The position numbers and the translations under genes are program-made. Below the pieces are notes generated by a model. It did not search any database and was not told the origin of the DNA. It saw nothing but the letters and a program-made list of their open reading frames with translations. From assembly GCA_948658045.1 (NCBI GenBank), contig CAPMFN010000007.1, positions 16,865 through 80,864 on the forward strand: a DNA stretch of 64,000 nt. Direction: 5' to 3'. The stretch's first letter is position 1; the number at the start of each line of letters is the position of its first letter. This stretch comes from Christensenellaceae bacterium. Lineage in GTDB: Bacteria; Bacillota; Clostridia; Christensenellales; Borkfalkiaceae. Of this stretch, positions 1 to 11,157 are shown one piece after another.

Positions 1-3000
1 AAGACAAAACGAAACTGGAACTTTTTATCGAAAAACAGAGCGCATTGCAAAATAACGGAGCGGCAGTGCAAACCGCAAAAGAGGCAGAGCCAACCGCTTT
101 ATCTGCCGCAACGGCAGTTGCTACGAAAGGTTTATCAAACGCAAATCAGATTATCGTAAGCAATGAAGAAATTATAAAGTGTGCTTCAGTATATTCTGCC
201 GAGGATGTCAGCGACACTTACGAAGGTATGCTTAAAGTTGATTGGTATTCACCTGGCAGCGGAGAATATTGGGCAGAAATCAATTTAAACGTGGATAAAC
301 TGCACTTAGATTCAAAAATAAATTCTGTAAAGTTTGTGCTAATTTCAAAAGATTTTGCTGTCGGAAAATTTAATTTCAATAATACTTTGTATGAAGCAAT
401 GCCGAACAATGAATATTCTTTTGATATTACAAATTTAGTGGCAGGTAAAAAAAGTGTAAATTTGTTTTTTTATCCTTATTATAATGAAGGCTCTTTTATT
501 GAATTTTACACTTCAGGTGTAAATGCGCCTAAAATAATACTTAACTCAGTTGAAAATTGGTATGAGCTGAATAAAACTCCCAATCTGAAAGACTTTAACC
601 TTGGCGATAAAGCAAAAGGATATGTTGACCTTAACGACGGAACTTTCTACACGCAATTTGCGCCTTTTAATTCAAGCGAATTTACTTTGCCTTTAAATAT
701 TTCGCATATTTATAAAAAAGGTGAGGAATGGAGCAAATGCGGTCAGAATTGGCGCTTAAATTTAAACAGAATGTTAAAAGTTGCGTCAAACGATAACGAC
801 CGCACAACTCTTTTCGCCTATACTGACGAGCTCGGCAATGTATACAATTTCGAGGAAAAATATTATTGTATAGATAACGGTCAGAAAATATTTGTTTCTA
901 AAGACAGCATAGAAATAGATTTGAACGGAAATCTTACAAGCGTAGGAAGAACTGTATATAAACATCAGATTTGTAACGGTATGACGTTTGTTTCCGAAAT
1001 AAATGATTTTATAAAATCAGAGTTAATAGAACAAAGAAGCGAAAGGCAGATTAATCTTGAAGAAACAATTAAACAGTATAAAAATACGTTAAGCGAGTAC
1101 GTTTTGGTTAATGTAAATACCGGTGTAATTATCGATACTAACCGCAGTGTTTTGAAAGATGGTTATGAACACTTCATGTTTTATTTGGAAAATTACAGTA
1201 ACATTACTATAATGCCGGAAAGTTCGGCTGTTCAGTTAAAATCTCTTATTTCAAGTAAAAGCTCGCTCAATTCACAAATAAGTGCGGCTACGGATGCAAA
1301 CCATAAAGCACAGCTCCGTAACCAGTTAGAAAATCAAATCGAACCTCAAATACATTATATAACTTGGCAGGCGACGAGGAATGTCTCGCACGTCAAAGAA
1401 ATGTTTGAAACGTATTTTAACAAGCTTGAAGAACTCGACTTTGTGCAGTTGAATACGCCTGTAAATTACCTTAAAGACACCAACGGTTTAATAAGCGGCT
1501 TCAATAAACACGGCAATCTGGTTTGCTTGTGCAATGCCTACGGCGGTTACGTTGCGGTTGAGTATAATAAACTTGACCAAATTTCAAGCATTTACGACGA
1601 CAAAGGTAAAAGTATGTCTTTTGAGTACGAGGATGATAAGCTTGCAAGCATTACAGACTGCCGTGGCAGAAAGACAAACTATGTATATAACGGAAAACAA
1701 CTCACAACGGTTAGGTATGCAGACGGAAGCAATATTAGCTTTACTTATTCGGGCGAAGATATTTCAACCGTGACCGATTCAAACGGTAATAAATCAACAA
1801 TAACTTACGCAAACAATAAGTTAAGCCGAATTCAAACGCTCTCTCATATGGTTAAAATTGCGAAAGACGACGTGACTAGAGGCGCAAGCTATACCAAAAA
1901 AATAGCCGATGTTACATTCGGTTACACCTCTGGCGGCGTAAACATAAATTACGGCGAAGGAAAATCGGAAAGCTACACTTTTACAAGCGGAAAAAATATT
2001 CAGACTCATTCGCAGGCGGACGAAATTCAAACAAAAACCGTAACATACAGCTACGACTATTCGCAGGGCAAAAAAATTACGGAAGTAAGCCAAACCGACG
2101 TTGGCGGCGAACCTGCCGTAACGACCATAAAAATATACGACGCCTTGGACCGTTTGATAAAAAAGGAAATCGATTGGCGCAACATTTCCGATAGCGTACA
2201 AAAAAGAATAGAGTACTTTTATTTTTACGACAATCACGATAACCTAATTTGCGAAAAATGTTGCGAATTTTTCAAAAAAGACAACAATACATCATCTTCA
2301 AATACCAGCTTGAAAAATTACAGCTACAACGCGCAGGGCAGTCTTATCCTCACGGAAAGCTTTGTTATGGGCGAAGAACTTACAAGCGGCAAAAACTATG
2401 AAGAGCGTGTTTACGACGAAAACGGCAACGTTACAAAAACCGTAAAATGGAACAGCTTGGACAGTTCAAGTAAATTCTATTCCGAAAGCGTCATTTCCGA
2501 AAGCGGTCTTGTCACCGCAGAAAAAGACGAAACAGGCGAAGCGGTTTCCGAATACGAATACCTTGACGGCACAAACGTTGTAAAAAGCGTAAAACAGACT
2601 AACGGCATTACAGTTGCATACGGCAGAGACCCCGGCAATTTTACGGTAACTTCTGTAACGCAAAGCACGGCGGACGGCGAATCAAGCACTAACGATATAA
2701 TTTACGAGTGTGATTTGCCCGTAGAGGTAAAAAGCGAAAACACGGTTATAGATTACGAGTACGATTTTAAGGGCAGAAAGACCAAAGTCACCGTCAACGG
2801 CAAAGTTCAGTCAACTACAACTTATGAGGACTTTGAATATAATCAGGATTCAGAATCTGCAGTATACGGCTCAAGTAATACGACTTTATATGTTGGTGCA
2901 GACGAAACAATCAATTTTGCTCAAAGTAAAACGGGCAGGTTGAACGAGGATACGGGTAAAATGCGTATAAAAGAGGTAACAGAAGTAAACGGTCAAACCG

Positions 3001-4811
3001 TCGTCGGCAAAGAGTATGACGAAAAAGGTCGCGTGAAAAAAGTTATTGATAATTATTCAGACGTTAATGTAGATTATACATATAATTATTACGGAAATAT
3101 TGTTTCAATAGAAAAAACCAAAAATAATGTGATGCACTTAACTGAAAATTATCGTTATAATGAATACGGCGAAGTCTCTGAAAAACACATTTTCGGTGCG
3201 GTTAATCACGCCTATACTTTCGGGTACAAATCGGACGCGGCGCGCACACTTGAATATGTTCGTTACGATAATAATAAATTCGTACATTTAACTGACGTAA
3301 ACGGCAGAAATACGGGTAGGGAGATTGCTTTACCTATGGGAGGCAAAATTGCTGGTGAATATATTTCATATCGTAAGGTGGGCGACCACGCAACGAATAT
3401 GCCGTCCGTAATCTGGTACGCAAGCGGCGAGGATATCAAAGACAACATAAAGTATAAGTACGACAAAAGCGGCAACATCTGCGAAATAACTGAAAACGGA
3501 CATATTGTTGCAAAGTATGCCTACGACGGGTTAAACCGTCTTGTCCGCGAAGACAATAAGCCGCTGAATAAAACCGTGCTTTACAGCTATGATAATTGCG
3601 GCAATATAACAGAGCGTTGCGAATACGCGTACACGAGGAAAAGCGGCGAAGAGCTTACCGAACTTGACTGCACGCATTTTGCATACGAATACGACGGCGA
3701 CAGGCTTGTAAGCTACAACGGAGAAAAGTGCGAGTATAATAATAACGGTTGCCCTTATACATATCGAAACAAATCATTAGAGTGGCGTTTCGGCACACGT
3801 GCAGCGTATTTTGACGGAATATCATACGAACACGACGGCTTCGGCAAAAGAATAAAAAAGAACAATATAGAGTTTGTTTATGACAGCGACGGCAGACTTA
3901 TAAAACAAAGTAACGGGCTTGAATTTATCTACGACGATAAACAGGTAATAGCTTTAGAAAAAGCACAAATTCGTTACTTCTACCGTAGAGACGTACAGGG
4001 CAATATTATAGCTTTACTTGACGAAAACGGCGCAGTTGTGGTAAGATATATCTACGACGCATGGGGCAACCACGCCGTGGTTGACGTAAATGGAAACGAT
4101 GTTGAAAGCGGAATAGGAGTATTAAATCCGTTCAGATATCGCGGCTACTATTACGACGCAGAAACAGGCTTGTACTATTTGCAAACCCGTTATTACGACC
4201 CCGAAACAGGCAGATTTATTTCTCAGGACAGCATAGAATACGCCGACCCCGAAGCCGTAAACGGACTGAACCTCTACGCATACTGCGGCAATAATCCCGT
4301 AATGAACGTAGACCCTAACGGCAATAGTTTCCTTAGAAAAGTAGGCAGTTGGTTCAAAAATGCAGGCAATACTATCAAAAATTTCTTTGTACATGAAGTA
4401 TATGAAGGCGCAATAAAACCTGCAACTGATTGGATTGTTGACGTTGCGACTCCTGCGGTTAGTAATTTCTTTACTAGTACGGTTCCTGATTTCTTTGTAA
4501 ATACTATTTATAACGGCGGACTAAAGCCTGCGTGGAATGCAGTATCTAATTTCTTCGTTAATACATTCTGGAATGATTGGATTGTAGATAAAGTGTGGAA
4601 TAACGGATTAGTTGTTGCTTGGGATTGGATTTCTGATATTGACAACTTGCTTTGGTTACTTGGTGCTATTGCAACAGTGGTAGGTGCTGCTATTACGATA
4701 GTTGGCGCAGTTATTACTTTACCGGTATGGGCGACAGTTTTAGGGGTTGTAGCTTCAGTCGTTGGTGTAGGTGTGCTAATTTGGCAATCAATAAGATTTT
4801 TTGGGGGTTAA
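1..4811 (+). CDS. RHS/YD-repeat polymorphic toxin, 5'-partial (frame open to window edge), with hydrophobic C-terminal toxin domain
   Basis: There is no in-frame stop between position 3 and the TTG at 45, so the gene continues upstream. Many YD/RHS repeats are present (YDDKGKSMSFEYEDDKL, YVYNGKQLTTVRY, YDALDRLIKK, YDGLNRLVRED). The RHS core end YYDPETGRFISQDSIEYADPEAVNGLNLYAYCGNNPVMNVDPNG (PxxxxDPxG) lies at ~4190-4320. It is followed by a ~160-aa Trp/Phe-rich repeat region (NFFV... x3) and two C-terminal TM helices. Confidence 0.9.
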   Translation, partial: DKTKLELFIEKQSALQNNGAAVQTAKEAEPTALSAATAVATKGLSNANQIIVSNEEIIKCASVYSAEDVSDTYEGMLKVDWYSPGSGEYWAEINLNVDKLHLDSKINSVKFVLISKDFAVGKFNFNNTLYEAMPNNEYSFDITNLVAGKKSVNLFFYPYYNEGSFIEFYTSGVNAPKIILNSVENWYELNKTPNLKDFNLGDKAKGYVDLNDGTFYTQFAPFNSSEFTLPLNISHIYKKGEEWSKCGQNWRLNLNRMLKVASNDNDRTTLFAYTDELGNVYNFEEKYYCIDNGQKIFVSKDSIEIDLNGNLTSVGRTVYKHQICNGMTFVSEINDFIKSELIEQRSERQINLEETIKQYKNTLSEYVLVNVNTGVIIDTNRSVLKDGYEHFMFYLENYSNITIMPESSAVQLKSLISSKSSLNSQISAATDANHKAQLRNQLENQIEPQIHYITWQATRNVSHVKEMFETYFNKLEELDFVQLNTPVNYLKDTNGLISGFNKHGNLVCLCNAYGGYVAVEYNKLDQISSIYDDKGKSMSFEYEDDKLASITDCRGRKTNYVYNGKQLTTVRYADGSNISFTYSGEDISTVTDSNGNKSTITYANNKLSRIQTLSHMVKIAKDDVTRGASYTKKIADVTFGYTSGGVNINYGEGKSESYTFTSGKNIQTHSQADEIQTKTVTYSYDYSQGKKITEVSQTDVGGEPAVTTIKIYDALDRLIKKEIDWRNISDSVQKRIEYFYFYDNHDNLICEKCCEFFKKDNNTSSSNTSLKNYSYNAQGSLILTESFVMGEELTSGKNYEERVYDENGNVTKTVKWNSLDSSSKFYSESVISESGLVTAEKDETGEAVSEYEYLDGTNVVKSVKQTNGITVAYGRDPGNFTVTSVTQSTADGESSTNDIIYECDLPVEVKSENTVIDYEYDFKGRKTKVTVNGKVQSTTTYEDFEYNQDSESAVYGSSNTTLYVGADETINFAQSKTGRLNEDTGKMRIKEVTEVNGQTVVGKEYDEKGRVKKVIDNYSDVNVDYTYNYYGNIVSIEKTKNNVMHLTENYRYNEYGEVSEKHIFGAVNHAYTFGYKSDAARTLEYVRYDNNKFVHLTDVNGRNTGREIALPMGGKIAGEYISYRKVGDHATNMPSVIWYASGEDIKDNIKYKYDKSGNICEITENGHIVAKYAYDGLNRLVREDNKPLNKTVLYSYDNCGNITERCEYAYTRKSGEELTELDCTHFAYEYDGDRLVSYNGEKCEYNNNGCPYTYRNKSLEWRFGTRAAYFDGISYEHDGFGKRIKKNNIEFVYDSDGRLIKQSNGLEFIYDDKQVIALEKAQIRYFYRRDVQGNIIALLDENGAVVVRYIYDAWGNHAVVDVNGNDVESGIGVLNPFRYRGYYYDAETGLYYLQTRYYDPETGRFISQDSIEYADPEAVNGLNLYAYCGNNPVMNVDPNGNSFLRKVGSWFKNAGNTIKNFFVHEVYEGAIKPATDWIVDVATPAVSNFFTSTVPDFFVNTIYNGGLKPAWNAVSNFFVNTFWNDWIVDKVWNNGLVVAWDWISDIDNLLWLLGAIATVVGAAITIVGAVITLPVWATVLGVVASVVGVGVLIWQSIRFFGG
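3396..3610. repeat. 215-bp exact repeat, partner 6360-6574
   Basis: Base-by-base visual comparison of the main rhs gene with orphan module 2, at a constant offset of 2964. Confidence 0.85.
4029..4213. repeat. 185-bp exact repeat, partner 6993-7177
   Basis: Visual comparison at the same offset of 2964. The flanks are similar but carry scattered substitutions. Confidence 0.85.
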
Positions 4812-4812
4812 A

Positions 4813-5046
4813 TTGAAAAAAATATTTTTTATTATACTGATGACACTTTTATTAATCTTTAGCATAATATTGTTATGTGTTTCTCAGTTTATGGATATAA
4901 CTTTAGGGTTTAGAATTTTTATAATAGTTTATCAAATCGCGTTTTATTTATTTATTATTACTGTTTGCTTTATACAATTATTACAAAAAGTAAAAAATAA
5001 AAAATCTAAAAAAGATAGAAATAATGAACCCACGGATATAGAATAA
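4813..5046 (+). CDS. small multi-TM protein, candidate cognate immunity protein of the main RHS toxin
   Basis: It begins 2 nt after the rhs stop (TAA 4809-4811). GGGGG at 4803-4807 could serve as RBS for the TTG at 4813; the track start at 4801 is also possible. The product is hydrophobic helices plus a KNKKSKKD tail and the ORF is very AT-rich. Its position is typical of an immunity gene. Confidence 0.5.
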   Translation: MKKIFFIILMTLLLIFSIILLCVSQFMDITLGFRIFIIVYQIAFYLFIITVCFIQLLQKVKNKKSKKDRNNEPTDIE

Positions 5047-5128
5047 TTAAATATAGTTTAACAAAAGAGCATATAATACTTTTGAAGAAATTGGAGACAA
5101 AATTTTATATTTTGTTCTGTTAATAAAG

Positions 5129-5162
5129 AAACAAGGCGGTATAAACCGTCTTGTTTTTCTTT
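5129..5162 (+). terminator. intrinsic terminator closing the main rhs/immunity unit
   Basis: An 11-bp stem AAACAAGGCGG / CCGTCTTGTTT (one G-U pair) with loop TATAAA is followed by a T-run. Confidence 0.6.
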
Positions 5163-5164
5163 AA

Positions 5165-5193
5165 TTGACGTGCAGCTTAAAATATGGTAAAAT
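5165..5193 (+). promoter_or_regulatory. sigma-A-like promoter motif at 5' edge of orphan module 1
   Basis: TTGACG (5165-5170), a 17-nt spacer, then TAAAAT (5188-5193), with TG at 5185-5186 giving an extended -10 (TGnTAAAAT). Confidence 0.4.
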
Positions 5194-5881
5194 AATCTAC
5201 GACCCTGAAACGGGCAGATTTATTTCGCAAGATTTAACCGAATACGCCGACCCCGAAGCAATAAACGGCTTAAACCTCTACGCATACTGCGGTAATAACC
5301 CCGTAATGAACGTAGACCCTACGGGGAGAATAGGTTTAACTTTTATTTTAGTTTCAATGCTAATTGGGGCTATAATTGGTGGTGTTTCAGCTGGCGTTAA
5401 AGCAAGTGATGATGGATTAGATGCCAAGGGTATAGCTTTAGCAGTATTAGGTGGTGTTATTTTAGGGGCAGCCGTTTCAGGTTCTTTTGCCCTTGGTGGA
5501 GGAGCGGTCTCAGGTTTAACAATATTAGGAAAAACTGTTTCAGGGTTTGCTTTATTTGCAACTGCGACAATTGGTACAGCTTTGGCTAGCTCAGCTGAAT
5601 ATTGTCTTACTGAACTTGCATATGGAAAAACTCCTAATTTGGAAGGAACATTAATGAGCGGCGTTAAAGGAGCTTTTCAAGGTATGTTTTCTTTTGGTTT
5701 CGGTGCTTTGGCTGGATTAAATGGTAATTTTAAATACGCTGATAAAAGTTTGTTCAATGATACGGGATATTTATTTAAATTACCAAAAGAATCGATAATT
5801 AGATACATTGGATATTCTTTTCCGTCTACAATTATTCGTGGATTATTTGATAAAATATTTCACAAAAATTGGGGGATATAA
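5165..5881 (+). CDS. orphan RHS-tip + glycine-zipper membrane toxin domain (module 1)
   Basis: YDPETGRFISQDLTEYADPEAINGLNLYAYCGNNPVMNVDPTG is homologous to 4193-4320 of the main gene. It is followed by a Gly/Ala-rich hydrophobic region with GxxxG motifs (GAIIGGVSAG, GGVILGAAVSG). The only possible start is the TTG of the -35-like hexamer, and it has no SD. Confidence 0.7.
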   Translation: MTCSLKYGKIIYDPETGRFISQDLTEYADPEAINGLNLYAYCGNNPVMNVDPTGRIGLTFILVSMLIGAIIGGVSAGVKASDDGLDAKGIALAVLGGVILGAAVSGSFALGGGAVSGLTILGKTVSGFALFATATIGTALASSAEYCLTELAYGKTPNLEGTLMSGVKGAFQGMFSFGFGALAGLNGNFKYADKSLFNDTGYLFKLPKESIIRYIGYSFPSTIIRGLFDKIFHKNWGI

Positions 5882-6308
5882 GTGTATAAAAAAATTAGGA
5901 TAAATTTAAATATTATAAAATGGTGTTTAACTTGTTGCTTATTATTAGGAAATTTATTACTATTAGCTAAAAACGATGACAAATTATTTATAATAATTTA
6001 TGAAATTTCAATTAATGTTTTAGCAATTGGTTCATTTATATTGTTGTCATTTTTCCCTCGAATATATTATATTTTCGATGAGTATGGGATTTCTTATCAA
6101 AACAAAAAAGGTAAAGAATATTTGCATATAAGTTGGCAAAATATTGTAGATATTTCATATATATATATTAGGTTTTATTCCAGATGGATTAGAAATAAAA
6201 TGGCAAATACAAGGTAAATTGAATAAGTACACGTTAACAATATCACGTAAACAATCAAAAGAAGTATTTAAATTATTTGCTCAATATATAGATTTTTTAA
6301 ATAAATAA
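5882..6308 (+). pseudogene. module-1 immunity candidate (TM hairpin + small domain), apparently frameshifted
   Basis: A GTG directly follows the toxin stop. The annotated frame ends at 6217, but the +1 frame continues as PDGLEIKWQIQGKLNKYTLTISRKQSKEVFKLFAQYIDFLNK to TAA 6306-6308. That continuation parallels the C-terminus of the module-2 immunity ORF (PGRLEIYLKD..YTKTFLIRIKYKDYHNLPEIY). The shift lies at or just after the (AT)6 tract at 6157-6168. Confidence 0.45.
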
Positions 6309-6310
6309 TA

Positions 6311-6346
6311 AAAAGAATGCTGCTAAATTTAGCAGCATTCTTTTTA
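6311..6346 (+). terminator. intrinsic terminator of module 1
   Basis: Perfect palindrome GAATGCTGCTAAA/TTTAGCAGCATTC (6315-6340) followed by TTTTT. Confidence 0.75.
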
Positions 6347-6362
6347 TTATTTAGCCACAAAT

Positions 6363-7880
6363 ATGCCGTCCGTAATCTGGTACGCAAGCGGCGAGGATAT
6401 CAAAGACAACATAAAGTATAAGTACGACAAAAGCGGCAACATCTGCGAAATAACTGAAAACGGACATATTGTTGCAAAGTATGCCTACGACGGGTTAAAC
6501 CGTCTTGTCCGCGAAGACAATAAGCCGCTGAATAAAACCGTGCTTTACAGCTATGATAATTGCGGCAATATAACCGAACGCTGTGAATACGCGTACACGA
6601 GGAAGAGCGGCGAAGAACTTACCGAACAGGCCTGCACGCATTTTGCATACGAATACGACGGCGACAGGCTTGTAAGCTATAACGGCGAGAAATGCGCGTA
6701 CAATAATTTGGGCAGTCCTACAACCTATCGCGATAAACAAGCGCAATGGCAGTTTGGAACAAGGTTAAGGAGTTTAGGCGCCGCCGCTTTTAATTACGAC
6801 GGCTTCGGCAGAAGAAGTCAAAAGAACGGTATAGAATATACCTATGACAGCGACGGAAGACTTATAAAACAAAGCGACGGTCTTGAATTTGTCTACGACA
6901 ATAAAGAAGTTACGGGTATAATTTATAACGAAAAGCAGTACTTCTACCGCAGGGATATACAGGGCAATATAATAGCCATACTTGACGAAAGAGGCGCAGT
7001 TGTGGTAAGATATATCTACGACGCATGGGGCAACCACGCCGTGGTTGACGTAAATGGAAACGATGTTGAAAGCGGAATAGGAGTATTAAATCCGTTCAGA
7101 TATCGCGGCTACTATTACGACGCAGAAACAGGCTTGTACTATTTGCAAACCCGTTATTACGACCCCGAAACAGGCAGGTTTATCTCTCAGGACAGCATAG
7201 AATACGCCGCCCCCGAAGCCGTAAACGGACTGAACCTCTACGCATACTGTTTAAATAATCCTGTTATGATGACCGATGAAACAGGAACTATGCCCGAATG
7301 GTTAAAATGGGTTTTAGGAATATTAATTATTGTTGTGGCGGTAGGCTTATCAATTGTTACAATGGGTTTAGCTACGCCTATATCTGCAGCATTAGGCGGA
7401 GGTTTAGCTGGTGCTATACTTGGAGGTGCTGTTGCTGGTGCAATTGGTGGGGCAATTGCTGGCTTTGGTATAAGCGTTGGGTTGCAAGGTATTTCAAAAG
7501 GTTTTGAAAATATTGATTGGAAACAAGTTGGGTTTGATACTTTAAGTGGAGCGGTTTCAGGTGCAATAGCAGGTGGTTTATTTGGGGGGTTACAACATGT
7601 AGCAAGTGCAAGCAAAGTAGCTAGCGGTTTATCCGGTTTAGCAAATGCACAAAACAATTTTAATAAAGCATCTTTCGCTTTACAATTTACTCCAATTAAA
7701 ATTTCTGGAGGAGTAATGGCAACTGATAGAATTGCTGCTCAACTGAGTTTTGATGTTGCAAGTGCTAGATTAGGTGCAGTAAAAAGTGTCGCAAACGCTA
7801 TTGAATTTATTTTGAATCAAATTTATAAGATAGCCCGATTTGGCGTAAAACAATTAATAAACAATACAATAAAAGGTTGA
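6363..7880 (+). CDS. long orphan RHS C-terminal fragment + glycine-zipper toxin domain (module 2)
   Basis: The first ~300 aa are YD repeats nearly identical to main-gene residues encoded at 3399-4290, and the ATG corresponds to an internal Met of the main gene. After the tip ...NGLNLYAYCLNNPVMMTDETG comes GGGLAGAILGGAVAGAIGGAIAGFG and a further ~150 aa. No SD is visible. Confidence 0.8.
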   Translation: MPSVIWYASGEDIKDNIKYKYDKSGNICEITENGHIVAKYAYDGLNRLVREDNKPLNKTVLYSYDNCGNITERCEYAYTRKSGEELTEQACTHFAYEYDGDRLVSYNGEKCAYNNLGSPTTYRDKQAQWQFGTRLRSLGAAAFNYDGFGRRSQKNGIEYTYDSDGRLIKQSDGLEFVYDNKEVTGIIYNEKQYFYRRDIQGNIIAILDERGAVVVRYIYDAWGNHAVVDVNGNDVESGIGVLNPFRYRGYYYDAETGLYYLQTRYYDPETGRFISQDSIEYAAPEAVNGLNLYAYCLNNPVMMTDETGTMPEWLKWVLGILIIVVAVGLSIVTMGLATPISAALGGGLAGAILGGAVAGAIGGAIAGFGISVGLQGISKGFENIDWKQVGFDTLSGAVSGAIAGGLFGGLQHVASASKVASGLSGLANAQNNFNKASFALQFTPIKISGGVMATDRIAAQLSFDVASARLGAVKSVANAIEFILNQIYKIARFGVKQLINNTIKG

Positions 7881-7883
7881 ATT

Positions 7884-8192
7884 ATGGATTATTTAAGTTT
7901 AAAAAATGCAATATTTTATCCAAATCAAATAGTTATTCTTAAAAAAAGAGGAAAGGTGTTAATTGATATAATTGATATTGAACGTATTGATTATGAAAAG
8001 CCGTCTTTAAAAAATTACTTATTTTCATCTGTATGGTTCGGTGGAACTTTTCCTGGTCGTTTAGAAATTTACCTTAAAGATAATATTTTGACCCAAAAAA
8101 AATATTATACTAAAACTTTTTTAATTAGAATAAAATATAAGGATTATCATAACTTGCCAGAAATTTATAAACAAAAATTTAATTTGTATTAA
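7884..8192 (+). CDS. module-2 immunity candidate (soluble, 102 aa)
   Basis: The ATG lies 3 nt after the toxin stop with AAAGG upstream. The ORF is very AT-rich and sits directly downstream of the toxin. Confidence 0.5.
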   Translation: MDYLSLKNAIFYPNQIVILKKRGKVLIDIIDIERIDYEKPSLKNYLFSSVWFGGTFPGRLEIYLKDNILTQKKYYTKTFLIRIKYKDYHNLPEIYKQKFNLY

Positions 8193-8248
8193 TATCGAAA
8201 TTAATTTTTTGTGATGTGCAATTGAATTTATAATTTTATTGTATTTAA

Positions 8249-8280
8249 ATAACAGCCGCTGAATATTCAGCGGCTGTTAT
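8249..8280 (+). terminator. hairpin closing module 2
   Basis: ATAACAGCCGCTGAA-TAT-TTCAGCGGCTGTTAT is a perfect long stem, but the following T-run is weak. Confidence 0.4.
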
Positions 8281-8290
8281 AATAGTCATC

Positions 8291-8320
8291 TTGACGCACC
8301 GTTTAAAAATATGGTAAAAT
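8291..8320 (+). promoter_or_regulatory. sigma-A-like promoter motif at 5' edge of orphan module 3
   Basis: TTGACG (8291-8296), an 18-nt spacer, then TAAAAT (8315-8320), with TGg immediately upstream of the -10. Confidence 0.4.
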
Positions 8321-8969
8321 AATTTACGACCCCGAAACAGGCAGATTTATCTCGCAGGACAGCATAGACTACGCCGACCCCGAAAGAATAAACGGCTTAA
8401 ACCTTTTCGCATACTGCGGCAATAATCCCGTAATGAACGTAGACCCTACGGGGAAATCATTAATAGGGTGTTTAGTATTATTAATCATAGGCATAGTTGC
8501 AAGCGGAGTAATAAATGGAGTTGTAGCAGGTGCAAATGCCGCAGAGGGCGAAAGTTTTTGGTCTGCGTTTGCCGGCGGATTTGTCAACGGTGTAATAAGC
8601 GGTATAGGTCTTGCCGTCGGCTTGGCTGTTGCTGTTGGCGGCGGAATTGGTGCATTAGTTGTTGGTGGGATAATTGCGGCAGGTTTTGGCTTTGCTGGTG
8701 GGGTTGCAGGCAGTGCTGTAACGCAAAAAATAACCTATGGTGAAGTTGATAAAAATGTAGCATTGATAGCAGGCGCAATAAGCGCCGGAAATAATTTGTT
8801 AATGTTTGCAGGTTTAAGTGTAGCGGGTGTGTATAGCACAGCTCCGAAATTTTTGACAAGAGTAATGCAGAATTTATTGTTTGATGTAATACCTGTATCA
8901 ATGTCGGTTTTCTGGGGGACTTTGCCAATGCTTAATCCGAATGATTTGAGGGATAAATTTGGGAAATAA
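8313..8969 (+). CDS. orphan RHS-tip + glycine-zipper toxin domain (module 3); no canonical start upstream of Met 8433
   Basis: The frame is open from 8307 because TAA at 8304-8306 is in frame. It encodes GKIIYDPETGRFISQDSIDYADPERINGLNLFAYCGNNPVMNVDPTG, then GIGLAVGLAVAVGGGIGALVVGGIIAAGFGFAGGVAG. The track ORF starts only at the internal Met of PVMNVDP. Confidence 0.6.
   Translation, partial: GKIIYDPETGRFISQDSIDYADPERINGLNLFAYCGNNPVMNVDPTGKSLIGCLVLLIIGIVASGVINGVVAGANAAEGESFWSAFAGGFVNGVISGIGLAVGLAVAVGGGIGALVVGGIIAAGFGFAGGVAGSAVTQKITYGEVDKNVALIAGAISAGNNLLMFAGLSVAGVYSTAPKFLTRVMQNLLFDVIPVSMSVFWGTLPMLNPNDLRDKFGK
8408..8734. repeat. 327-bp exact repeat, partner 10796-11122
   Basis: Line-by-line comparison at offset 2388. 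The duplicated out-of-frame ORFs in the track (8369-8587/10793-10975 and 8468-8743/10856-11170) reflect this repeat. Confidence 0.9.
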
Positions 8970-11153: not shown

Positions 11154-11157
11154 CGTA

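Follow-up and report, generated by a model that had tools for sequence, protein, structure and literature searches.

How does a bacterium come to keep toxin and immunity genes that have been displaced from the large gene able to deliver them, and are such leftovers still read? The question is raised by the first 11,157 nucleotides of the window, by which we mean the whole 64,000-nucleotide stretch analysed here (Christensenellaceae bacterium, assembly GCA_948658045.1, contig CAPMFN010000007.1, positions 16,865 to 80,864 of the forward strand), where one large RHS gene is followed by a row of orphan cassettes. Arrays of this kind are textbook material in Proteobacteria, whereas in Clostridia, the dominant bacteria of gut communities, they have hardly been characterised. 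What we have here, in a gut Clostridia bacterium, is a polymorphic-toxin locus of the RHS type whose orphan cassettes have been displaced. Systems of this type are already known, and this one is set apart from the known RHS orphan loci by compact orphans reduced to a promoter-like element and a tip, by a promoter-like element embedded in codons and by a conserved linkage to a holin-like gene. We think it probable that the best account of the whole is an RHS locus with membrane toxins, orphan cassettes transcribed from promoters of their own, and a large product that leaves the cell with the aid of a holin-like protein; the transcription, toxicity, immunity and export that this account calls for are of course predicted functions.

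The RHS gene and its orphan cassettes

The large gene is the easiest part to name. Its frame is open from window base 3 and stops at 4811, and the window edge cuts its 5′ end, 16 codons being absent by comparison with the syntenic contig L001 (L-numbers denote the related loci and contigs that were compared with the window), which is 99.6% identical to the window over 16 kb and holds a full-length ortholog of 1619 aa. The first-pass annotation, made from the letters alone, had described this frame as rich in YD repeats and closed by an RHS core, and the profile searches say the same: RHS_repeat (PF05593) matches the protein of frame 3–4811 at E=6.8e-21, Rhs_assc_core (TIGR03696) at E=7.5e-24 over aa 1337–1426 and YD_repeat (TIGR01643) at E=4.5e-6, PF25023 TEN_YD-shell is a precomputed match on the L001 ortholog, and the C-terminal core matches Rhs, Tse5, Tse15 and TcC structures in the PDB at up to E=8.8e-17 (E=1.6e-16 for the Tse5 core). 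The core ends with YYDPETGRF...NVDPNG, in which the motif PxxxxDPxG reads NNPVMNVDPNG, and similarity between the units of the array stops directly after this motif. In the working that we propose, the shell of ~1,619 aa would enclose a C-terminal toxin (CT) and release it at PxxxxDPxG, and a small, mostly membrane-bound protein encoded just downstream would neutralise each toxin.

The tip of the core, TACGACCC..GACCCTA (YDPETGRF...NVDPxG), is present six times, at 4194, 5198, 7158, 8325, 9500 and 10713, the five downstream starts lying within 3 nt of those originally proposed. The homology assumed for these copies holds at the nucleotide level, with 9–50 mismatches per 126 nt between pairs, far beyond chance, and TIGR03696 is found again in orphan 2 and, in part (model positions ~32–75), in orphans 1 and 4. 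The orphans consist of a core or tip fragment with a distinct CT, are devoid of the delivery region and lie downstream of a full-length gene. That every tip is fused to a different C-terminal sequence, and that there are five toxin/immunity modules, was right for orphans 1–4, which are four complete modules, and wrong for the fifth, a truncated duplicate of orphan 3 that has no immunity gene and whose CT is 100% identical to that of orphan 3 over 327 nt, until it is cut off at ~11120 by the tRNA terminator. The six units carry five distinct CTs of 157–198 aa, orphans 3 and 5 sharing one. Nor is every downstream unit headed by its tip, as had been supposed, since orphan 2 duplicates the last ~930 nt of core and tip (3390–4319 = 6354–7283) and keeps ~800 nt of core ahead of the tip. 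The small AT-rich reading frames (ORFs) with a following hairpin that had been noticed in modules 1–4 are there, at 19.7–25.5% GC, except that the hairpin of module 2 lacks the T-run; the CTs are at 34–43% GC, most tips at 47–52% and the genome at ~44%. The parts of the array, with the evidence for each in brackets, are as follows.

3–4811, plus strand: main RHS/YD-repeat toxin gene, core ending at 4193 (open frame, domain matches, L001 ortholog)
4194–4319, plus strand: tip of the main gene (YDPETGRF...NNPVMNVDPNG), with the PxxxxDPxG motif (tip alignment)
4320–4811, plus strand: main CT, with W/F-rich FFxxTxPDFFVNTxWN repeats and a hydrophobic C-terminal hairpin (sequence composition)
4813–5046, plus strand: putative immunity gene 0, small membrane protein, 19.7% GC, ribosome-binding site (RBS) GGGGG (composition, RBS)
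5127–5158, plus strand: terminator hairpin and T-run closing the main transcription unit (hairpin scan)
5198–5881, plus strand: orphan 1, tip 5198–5323 and CT1 5327–5881 (tip alignment, composition)
5882–6272, plus strand: immunity gene 1, membrane protein, frameshifted, the called ORF ending at 6217 (comparison with the L013 homolog)
6305–6350, no strand assigned: bidirectional 20-bp hairpin terminator after module 1 (hairpin scan)
6354–7880, plus strand: orphan 2, the long form, ~800 nt of core, tip 7158–7283 and CT2 7284–7880 (repeat comparison)
7884–8192, plus strand: putative immunity gene 2, 102 aa, no transmembrane (TM) segment, 21.7% GC (composition)
8249–8280, plus strand: hairpin after module 2, without T-run (hairpin scan)
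8325–8969, plus strand: orphan 3, tip 8325–8450 and CT3 8454–8969 (tip alignment, composition)
8959–9426, plus strand: putative immunity gene 3, membrane protein, RBS GAGGGA (composition, RBS)
9430–9461, plus strand: terminator hairpin and T-run after module 3 (hairpin scan)
9500–10102, plus strand: orphan 4, most diverged tip 9500–9625 (31% GC) and CT4 9629–10102 (tip alignment, GC)
10117–10638, plus strand: putative immunity gene 4, TM segments at both ends, RBS AAGGAG (composition, RBS)
10643–10670, no strand assigned: terminator hairpin after module 4 (hairpin scan)
10713–11120, plus strand: orphan 5, mosaic tip and the 5′ part of CT3 (~280 nt), no immunity gene (repeat comparison)
11121–11234, minus strand: tRNA-Arg(acg) at 11158–11234 and its terminator hairpin at 11121–11156, right boundary of the array (tRNA/Rfam match)

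Within a unit these parts keep one order, namely preceding hairpin terminator, promoter-like element, tip, CT, purine-rich RBS (GGGGG, GGGGGA, AAAGG, GAGGGA or AAGGAG), small ORF and hairpin, an order that would make each cassette an autonomous transcription unit running from terminator and promoter to immunity gene and terminator. The promoter-like elements were not part of the first description of the array, which had passed over a conserved element of ~35 nt upstream of the tip common to the four short orphans.

Promoter-like elements, embedded and free-standing

Six promoter-like elements lie in the array, one to each unit, all on the plus strand and all located by motif scan, supplemented by alignment for the four short orphans.

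4018–4047, plus strand: main-gene element in the codons for LLDENGAVVVRY, TTGACG-18 nt-TAAGAT, TG upstream
5165–5193, plus strand: orphan 1 element, TTGACG-17-TAAAAT with TG, non-coding
6982–7011, plus strand: orphan 2 embedded element, TTGACG-18-TAAGAT with TG
8291–8320, plus strand: orphan 3 element, TTGACG-18-TAAAAT with TG
9467–9495, plus strand: orphan 4 element, TTGACG-17-TAAAAT with TG
10679–10708, plus strand: orphan 5 element, TTGACG-18-TACAAT with TG

They are the only matches to TTGACG-17/18-TA[AC][AG]AT in 12.5 kb that bear the TG of an extended -10. In the four short orphans the element (TTGACG-17/18 nt-TGGTA[AC]AAT) is non-coding and stands 4 nt ahead of the tip; in the main gene and orphan 2 it is TTGACG-18-TGGTAAGAT, written into the codons of LLDE(N/R)GAVVVRY directly before the start of TIGR03696. 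The general form is a sigma-70-like TTGACR-17/18-TGnTAnnAT in the coding motif LLDxxGxVVxY, and the embedded arrangement recurs in distant relatives (twice in L011, and in L012 and the main gene of L013), the element being clade-specific and absent from the more distant QGD..IYD clade.

Is a near-consensus promoter-like element inside conserved codons anything more than an accident of the peptide? To judge from a broader sample, it seems to be. We retrieved 80 metagenomic RHS core ends with peptide patterns that leave the tested codons unconstrained and scored 82 unique core ends at a fixed register against a null of synonymous-codon resampling (1000 trials). Promoter-grade sequences were found in 32 of the 82, against 6.1 +/- 2.2 expected and a maximum of 17 in any trial; with the TG required, the figures are 28 of 82, 1.2 expected and a maximum of 6. 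Relatedness among the sequences inflates such counts, and for this reason synonymous diversity was also compared column by column in the same alignment. It is 0.30–0.40 at the five codons that form the hexamers, among them Leu -10 (CTT in 20/22, against a pooled usage of 22%), Asp -9 (GAC in 31/37), Val -3 (GTG in 30/39) and Val -2 (GTA in 28/31), and 0.64–0.73 at neighbouring 3- and 4-fold sites, where codons such as those of Val -4 are mixed; at Asp +3 the ratio of GAC to GAT is 25:26 and the diversity 0.51. The -10 overlies different residues (R, E, K, Q or Y), and TAnnnT is retained. In the short orphans, where the coding constraint is gone, the spacer degenerates and the hexamers stay or improve (TAAGAT to TAAAAT, spacing 18 to 17). 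An independent case is L062, in which a terminator is followed after ~25 nt by TTGACG-17-TGGTACAAT, with the -35 outside the RHS homology, and an orphan of L013 that lacks the embedded element (its motif being LINKNG) has a separate TTGACG-17-TAAAAT upstream.

There is an experimental precedent. The Salmonella rhs promoters P2A and P2B, shown to be constitutive and internal, lie in a region common to the main gene and the orphan (PMC7043789), start 89 nt upstream of PxxxxDPxGL and drive CT and immunity as toxin-antitoxin modules (PMC7043789). On this analogy and on the sequence statistics, we take the elements here to be probable promoters of the sigma-70/sigmaA type. The first-pass annotation had presented the orphans as displaced spares that can be recombined into the expressed position. 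That they share the necessary homology is true, but they do not look like silent spares and nothing more: each has a promoter-like element, and the complete modules have a terminator and an immunity gene with an RBS as well.

A different reading of the hexamers, which we consider rather unlikely, is that they are not promoters at all and that the codon bias comes from gene conversion, from a recombination or other site-specific signal, from mRNA structure or from translational pausing before the core folds. It draws on real observations, since gene conversion demonstrably homogenises regions of the main gene and orphan 2 and the tips, the element sits at the TIGR03696 start, where many orphans of promoter-positive and promoter-negative clades alike begin, and the core-end sequences are related, so that the counts are not independent. 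It has more difficulty with the fact that what is frozen corresponds exactly to a -35 and an extended -10 spaced by 17–18 nt, with free variation at the synonymous sites of the spacer, that hexamers released from coding constraint stay as they are or move closer to consensus while the spacer degenerates, that every element follows a terminator and precedes a gene with an RBS, and that Salmonella provides the precedent.

Some observations do weigh against calling the elements promoters. Activity is argued from sequence statistics and from Salmonella; the resampling test overstates independence, which the comparison with neighbouring sites mitigates and does not remove; orphans of the promoter-negative RHS clade start near the same core position; and the leader of the short orphans is homologous to the core promoter only in the hexamers and in TACGAC, its spacer being identical at 3/15 positions (chance level) with a 1-nt offset, which would also suit a de novo or convergent origin. 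We had taken the grouping of orphan 5′ ends immediately upstream of the -35 as a sign that selection retains the promoter; this reading is withdrawn, because orphans of the promoter-negative clade start in the same area. The short orphans seem to be most simply explained by deletion between two TACGAC repeats encoding Tyr-Asp (at YxYD/AWGN and RYYD/PETG). The exact junction of promoter and tip had no match in a scan of species-representative genomes, and this compact form appears to be specific to this species.

If the elements are promoters, what do they make? Here the start codons are informative. The in-frame ATGs of orphan CTs 1, 3 and 5 have no Shine-Dalgarno sequence, and orphan 4 has no such ATG (it reads IKYVDFSG). 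Because the immunity genes have an RBS and the orphan CT ATGs have none, and because orphan 4 lacks the ATG altogether, the orphan cassettes most likely yield mainly immunity protein, with toxin translation low or absent. A cassette would then chiefly supply immunity, constitutively and whether or not the large gene is transcribed, perhaps along with a little toxin, as happens in Salmonella.

The short orphans might instead be self-standing toxin-antitoxin or bacteriocin-like genes, the CT being made from the ATG of ..PVMNVDPTG.., five codons before the autoproteolysis site, and acting inside the producer (as in Salmonella) or being released. We regard this as possible, though distinctly less likely. 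Orphans 1, 3 and 5 have the ATG, gene callers use it widely in relatives (MNVDPTG, MMFTDPNG, MAVDPEG), in Salmonella the Rhs-CTs use internal translation starts and act like type II toxin-antitoxin modules (PMC7043789), and EsxX-type glycine-zipper toxins are reported to be toxic from both sides of the membrane (PMC12744356). Against this, no Shine-Dalgarno sequence precedes the ATG, though every immunity gene has one, orphan 4 has no start to use, and orphan 5, which has promoter and ATG and no immunity gene, would be self-toxic if efficiently translated.

Recombination, persistence and the tRNA-Arg boundary

That the copies recombine is directly visible. In the window strain and in L001 alike, two blocks are 100% identical between the main gene and orphan 2 of the same strain, and between the strains these blocks differ by 7 single-nucleotide changes in one and by ~21 differences and a 6-nt indel in the other, whereas in the block between them the main gene and orphan 2 are 56–90% identical to each other and yet identical between the strains; the main gene and orphan 2 thus undergo concerted evolution by gene conversion. 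The tips are mosaic, orphans 3 and 5 differing at 9/23 mid-tip positions where orphan 5 equals the main gene, with the CT identical throughout. We therefore see recombination between copies, and the ~125-nt tip would serve as the recombination homology common to the four complete cassettes and the truncated one.

Cassette exchange is visible among relatives and was not found among the 10 contigs of this species. In L033 a full-length RHS gene of 1864 aa has a domain like CT2 (58% identity) as its expressed tip. In a sister species, two haplotypes at one chromosomal site (L099 and L100, 9346–18327), with common flanks and an RHS body that is ~93% identical, diverge completely and exactly after the tip, the main CT being HEFGH metallopeptidase-like in one haplotype and a glycine zipper in the other, and they differ in their sets of orphans as well. 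Population variants in which an orphan CT takes the place of the main one had been suggested as something to look for, and these relatives and sister species are where exchange was seen. Two apparent anomalies among conspecific contigs dissolve on inspection: the different lengths of the first immunity gene (81, 77 and 68 aa between strains) are start-codon calls and not different cassettes, and what looks like a hybrid of orphans 3 and 5 where contigs L003 and L008 end follows from the identity of these two orphans past the tip.

Might the array simply be inert debris of past displacement, with no current function? Some of it is plainly worn. Every strain examined has a frameshift in immunity gene 1, at a (TA)n run near 6160–6170 by comparison with a 145-aa homolog in L013; the C-terminal third runs on in another frame, and six other strains have exactly the same sequence in this region (6140–6272). 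Orphan 5, a duplicate cut short, has no immunity gene, and the architecture is invariant, being identical across all 10 conspecific contigs sampled. The rest of the evidence makes inertness very unlikely in our opinion, because four CT ORFs and 4/5 immunity ORFs are unbroken, with conservation of 99.5% or more between strains, the promoter hexamers, RBSs and terminators are maintained, gene conversion is ongoing, and orphan-only islets are kept in distant genomes. In strain L002 a 40-nt deletion lies inside orphan 5 (L002 4320–4723 = window 10679–11122), consistent with decay of this stump.

The islets deserve a word of their own. In L011 (9800–14340) and L012 (10046–11170), both from higher-GC Clostridia, low-GC islets of tip, CT and immunity gene stand among housekeeping genes, with no full-length RHS gene nearby. 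They look like islets retained for immunity. Cassettes that are transcribed from their own promoter would explain both the persistence of displaced cassettes and that of such low-GC, orphan-only islets in high-GC genomes.

The right end of the array was correctly placed against tRNA-Arg, a tRNA-Arg(acg) gene on the minus strand that is the only thing an Rfam scan of 1–12500 found. Its flank has now been compared in a conspecific metagenome-assembled genome (MAG), L109, which has the identical 285-aa neighbour and flanks and no array at the site, homology stopping at window 11207, 28 nt into the tRNA-Arg gene. L109 has another island instead, and the array site is therefore strain-variable, with the caveat that a MAG may contain a chimeric join. 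The island of L109 (10975–11330) begins inside tRNA-Arg with two tRNA-like units bearing long inserts, one of which (with a 62-nt insert) scores 45 bits on the Rfam tRNA model; a sub-threshold YrlA/Y-RNA-like match (26.8 bits) is also present, and the genes are DUF2828, ThiF, reverse transcriptase and RNase H, then AAA/HD. It may be a Ro/Y-RNA-like or defence module.

The first-pass annotation had concluded that the array probably grew by recombination rather than by a mobile element. Concerted evolution and mosaic tips uphold the positive half of that statement; the exclusion of mobile elements was too strong, given the island in L109 and an integrase in L013. How far should one go in the other direction? 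The whole array could be cargo of an integrative island targeted to tRNA-Arg, and not something grown in place purely by homologous recombination, which strikes us as doubtful but worth keeping in view. Where the array would be, L109 carries an island unrelated to it, and homology breaks off within the tRNA gene; in L012 (Ca. Borkfalkia) an RHS orphan islet lies directly 3′ of a different tRNA-Arg, tRNA-Arg(ccg); behind a related RHS array in L013 come a 5S-rRNA-like sequence (3690–3810, seen by eye only) and a phage-type integrase gene (4073–5323); and the cassettes are far more AT-rich than the genome. On the other side, 1–11157 of the window contains no integrase, transposase or att-like tRNA repeat, the left end of any such island would lie outside the window, the L109 comparison carries the risk of a chimeric join, and internal growth by recombination is independently supported.

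Predicted membrane toxins, a possible export route and known systems

What the cassettes encode can be described in outline. All five CTs have TM-like, strongly hydrophobic segments; CT1–3 are 16–18% Gly with 16–25 small-xxx-small-xxx-small motifs each, the pattern of a glycine zipper, and CT4 has a hydrophobic C-terminus. TM segments are present in 4/5 of the small downstream proteins, a small ORF with an RBS lies downstream of every complete CT, and immunity gene 1 co-varies with CT1 in L013. The main CT is predicted to be membrane-active, and the five CTs are together candidates for membrane-inserting or depolarising toxins paired with membrane immunity proteins. The statement that these families were unrecognised was accurate: no significant similarity connects the five CTs or the five small proteins among themselves, and searches of Pfam, NCBIfam and PHROG (at relaxed thresholds) and of PDB sequences gave nothing credible. 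They are also rare, CT1 having 4 clusters among 5.8 billion and the main CT 25 representatives among 1.84 billion; the main CT matches are mostly short fragments of tip plus CT, and 14/14 of those inspected carry the RHS tip. CT3 and CT4 were compared locally with the fetched loci only, where CT3 has one relative (38%), in L024.

The N-terminus of the L001 ortholog, MGTIKINKNNNETNKD, has no hydrophobic signal, and neither the RHS protein nor 13/13 full-length relatives have a signal peptide or a recognisable N-terminal domain; Pfam and NCBIfam searches for a trafficking domain gave only a weak DUF6531 match (E=0.023), and found neither an LXG domain nor a Sec signal with wall-binding repeats. 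Delivery through type VII secretion (T7SS) with LXG, delivery in the manner of WapA and delivery by a type VI secretion system (T6SS) were all rejected, the defining N-terminal features being absent. Several signal-less RHS proteins begin alike, with MG(T/I)(I/L)K(I/L)N(K/R)N.N (L001 988–1060; starts of L021, L022 and L031), a start that may serve as a signal for export or recognition.

Directly ahead of window base 1 lies a 108-aa holin-like gene (L001 646–969), which ends 15–19 nt before the RHS start and encodes a protein with one N-terminal TM segment that matches PHROG 6918 holin (E=6.5e-6) and PF09682 Holin_LLH (E=2.8e-4). Its family comprises 89 clusters, several with precomputed PF09682 matches, and in 7/8 members examined the gene ends 5–19 nt before an RHS gene of 1768–2129 aa; the eighth stands where an RHS array ends, and what follows the most distant member is a remnant of an RHS gene. 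A holin-like gene linked to that of a signal-less RHS protein is thus a conserved gene pair, of which we found no description in the literature searched. By analogy the holin-like gene may be the dedicated export partner of the RHS protein, which would leave the cell with its help. Some holin-RHS pairs adjoin genes of the sigma-70 region-4 family (L106 8401–8805; the ends of L116/L117), which recalls sigma factors of the TcdR/UviA type, and the gene upstream of the holin (L001 1–307) encodes a 1416-aa protein with a single C-terminal TM anchor and weak MBG/PKD-like matches.

What speaks against our overall explanation should be set out together. The toxin mechanism is argued from composition, and an AlphaFold2 model of the main CT (18 homologs) is all-helical with a pLDDT of 54.6, too poor for a fold search. 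The holin-like protein scores 21.6 bits against a Pfam gathering threshold of 24.9 and lies outside the window, and no endolysin turned up in the flanks shown, where no search aimed at an endolysin partner was made. Among 10 contigs of the species, no main gene has taken over the CT of an orphan, no full-length protein with CT1 turned up, and the frameshift of immunity gene 1 in every strain seen, with the stump of orphan 5, means that part of the array is decaying.

We are nevertheless tempted by a bolder proposal, which we offer tentatively and with more doubt than conviction: that a lineage of RHS proteins in gut Clostridia is exported by a Holin_LLH-type holin encoded 5–19 nt upstream, and not by T6SS, T7SS or Sec, that the core motif is a sigmaA promoter under purifying synonymous selection, that every CT-immunity cassette is autonomous and constitutively transcribed, and that orphans can shrink to a promoter and a 42-codon tip and still be immunity (or toxin-antitoxin-like) modules. 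The principle of an internal promoter is itself already known from Salmonella rhs; a promoter in conserved codons would, if true, generalise that single observation, and would explain the continued expression of displaced immunity genes and hence the persistence of orphan arrays and islets. The holin-RHS pair, if confirmed, suggests an export route for a large class of polymorphic toxins, in parallel with the large clostridial toxins, and the locus offers five unannotated families of predicted membrane toxins and immunity proteins.

How does all this compare with what is known? The Rhs loci of enterobacteria (Salmonella Typhimurium, E. coli, Dickeya) are the nearest in plan, with a full-length gene followed by CT/immunity cassettes that keep homology to the core, a variable CT that begins after PxxxxDPxG and a promoter in the conserved region of main gene and orphan, which here is a prediction. 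Unlike Salmonella, the host is a Gram-positive member of the Clostridia, the locus lacks any T6SS, PAAR or VgrG context, five orphans are present and not one, four of them reduced to promoter and 42-codon tip, and the element has a near-consensus extended -10 and hexamers with synonymous-site conservation across many species; the toxins, unlike those of enterobacterial Rhs, are predicted to be of the membrane type and not nucleases or ADP-ribosyltransferases. WapA of Bacillus subtilis is likewise a YD-repeat shell protein of a Gram-positive bacterium, carries a polymorphic toxin at its C-terminus and has its immunity gene downstream. What distinguishes WapA are its Sec signal peptide, its wall-binding repeats and CTs that are tRNases; the present RHS protein has neither a signal peptide nor an N-terminal domain that can be recognised, its gene is preceded by a holin-like one, and its CTs are predicted to be of the membrane type.

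For export, the closest likeness is to the holin-linked clostridial toxins and BCN5-type bacteriocins (TcdE, TpeE, UviB), in which a large signal-less toxin is coupled to a small holin. The very hydrophobic C-terminus of BCN5-type bacteriocins is incompatible with Sec transport (PMC9527704), and in Yersinia entomophaga a holin/endolysin type X secretion system releases the Tc toxins, in which the TcC subunit is an RHS protein (PMC10847048). Unlike the TcdE and BhlA families, the holin-like protein here resembles the Holin_LLH (PF09682) type and its presumed cargo is a polymorphic RHS protein of the interbacterial type. The toxins recall TspA and EsxX of S. aureus, Tse5-CT of P. aeruginosa and the CdiA-CT ionophores, which are hydrophobic Gly-rich domains with small membrane immunity proteins, and Tse5 demonstrates that an RHS cage can carry a glycine-zipper toxin that depolarises membranes; the resemblance is compositional only, with no PDB or Pfam similarity between these toxins and the CTs. 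Finally, orphan-immunity and acquired defence islands resemble the L011 and L012 islets that have no RHS gene, whereas the cassettes described here keep their toxin ORFs and tips behind an intact RHS gene.

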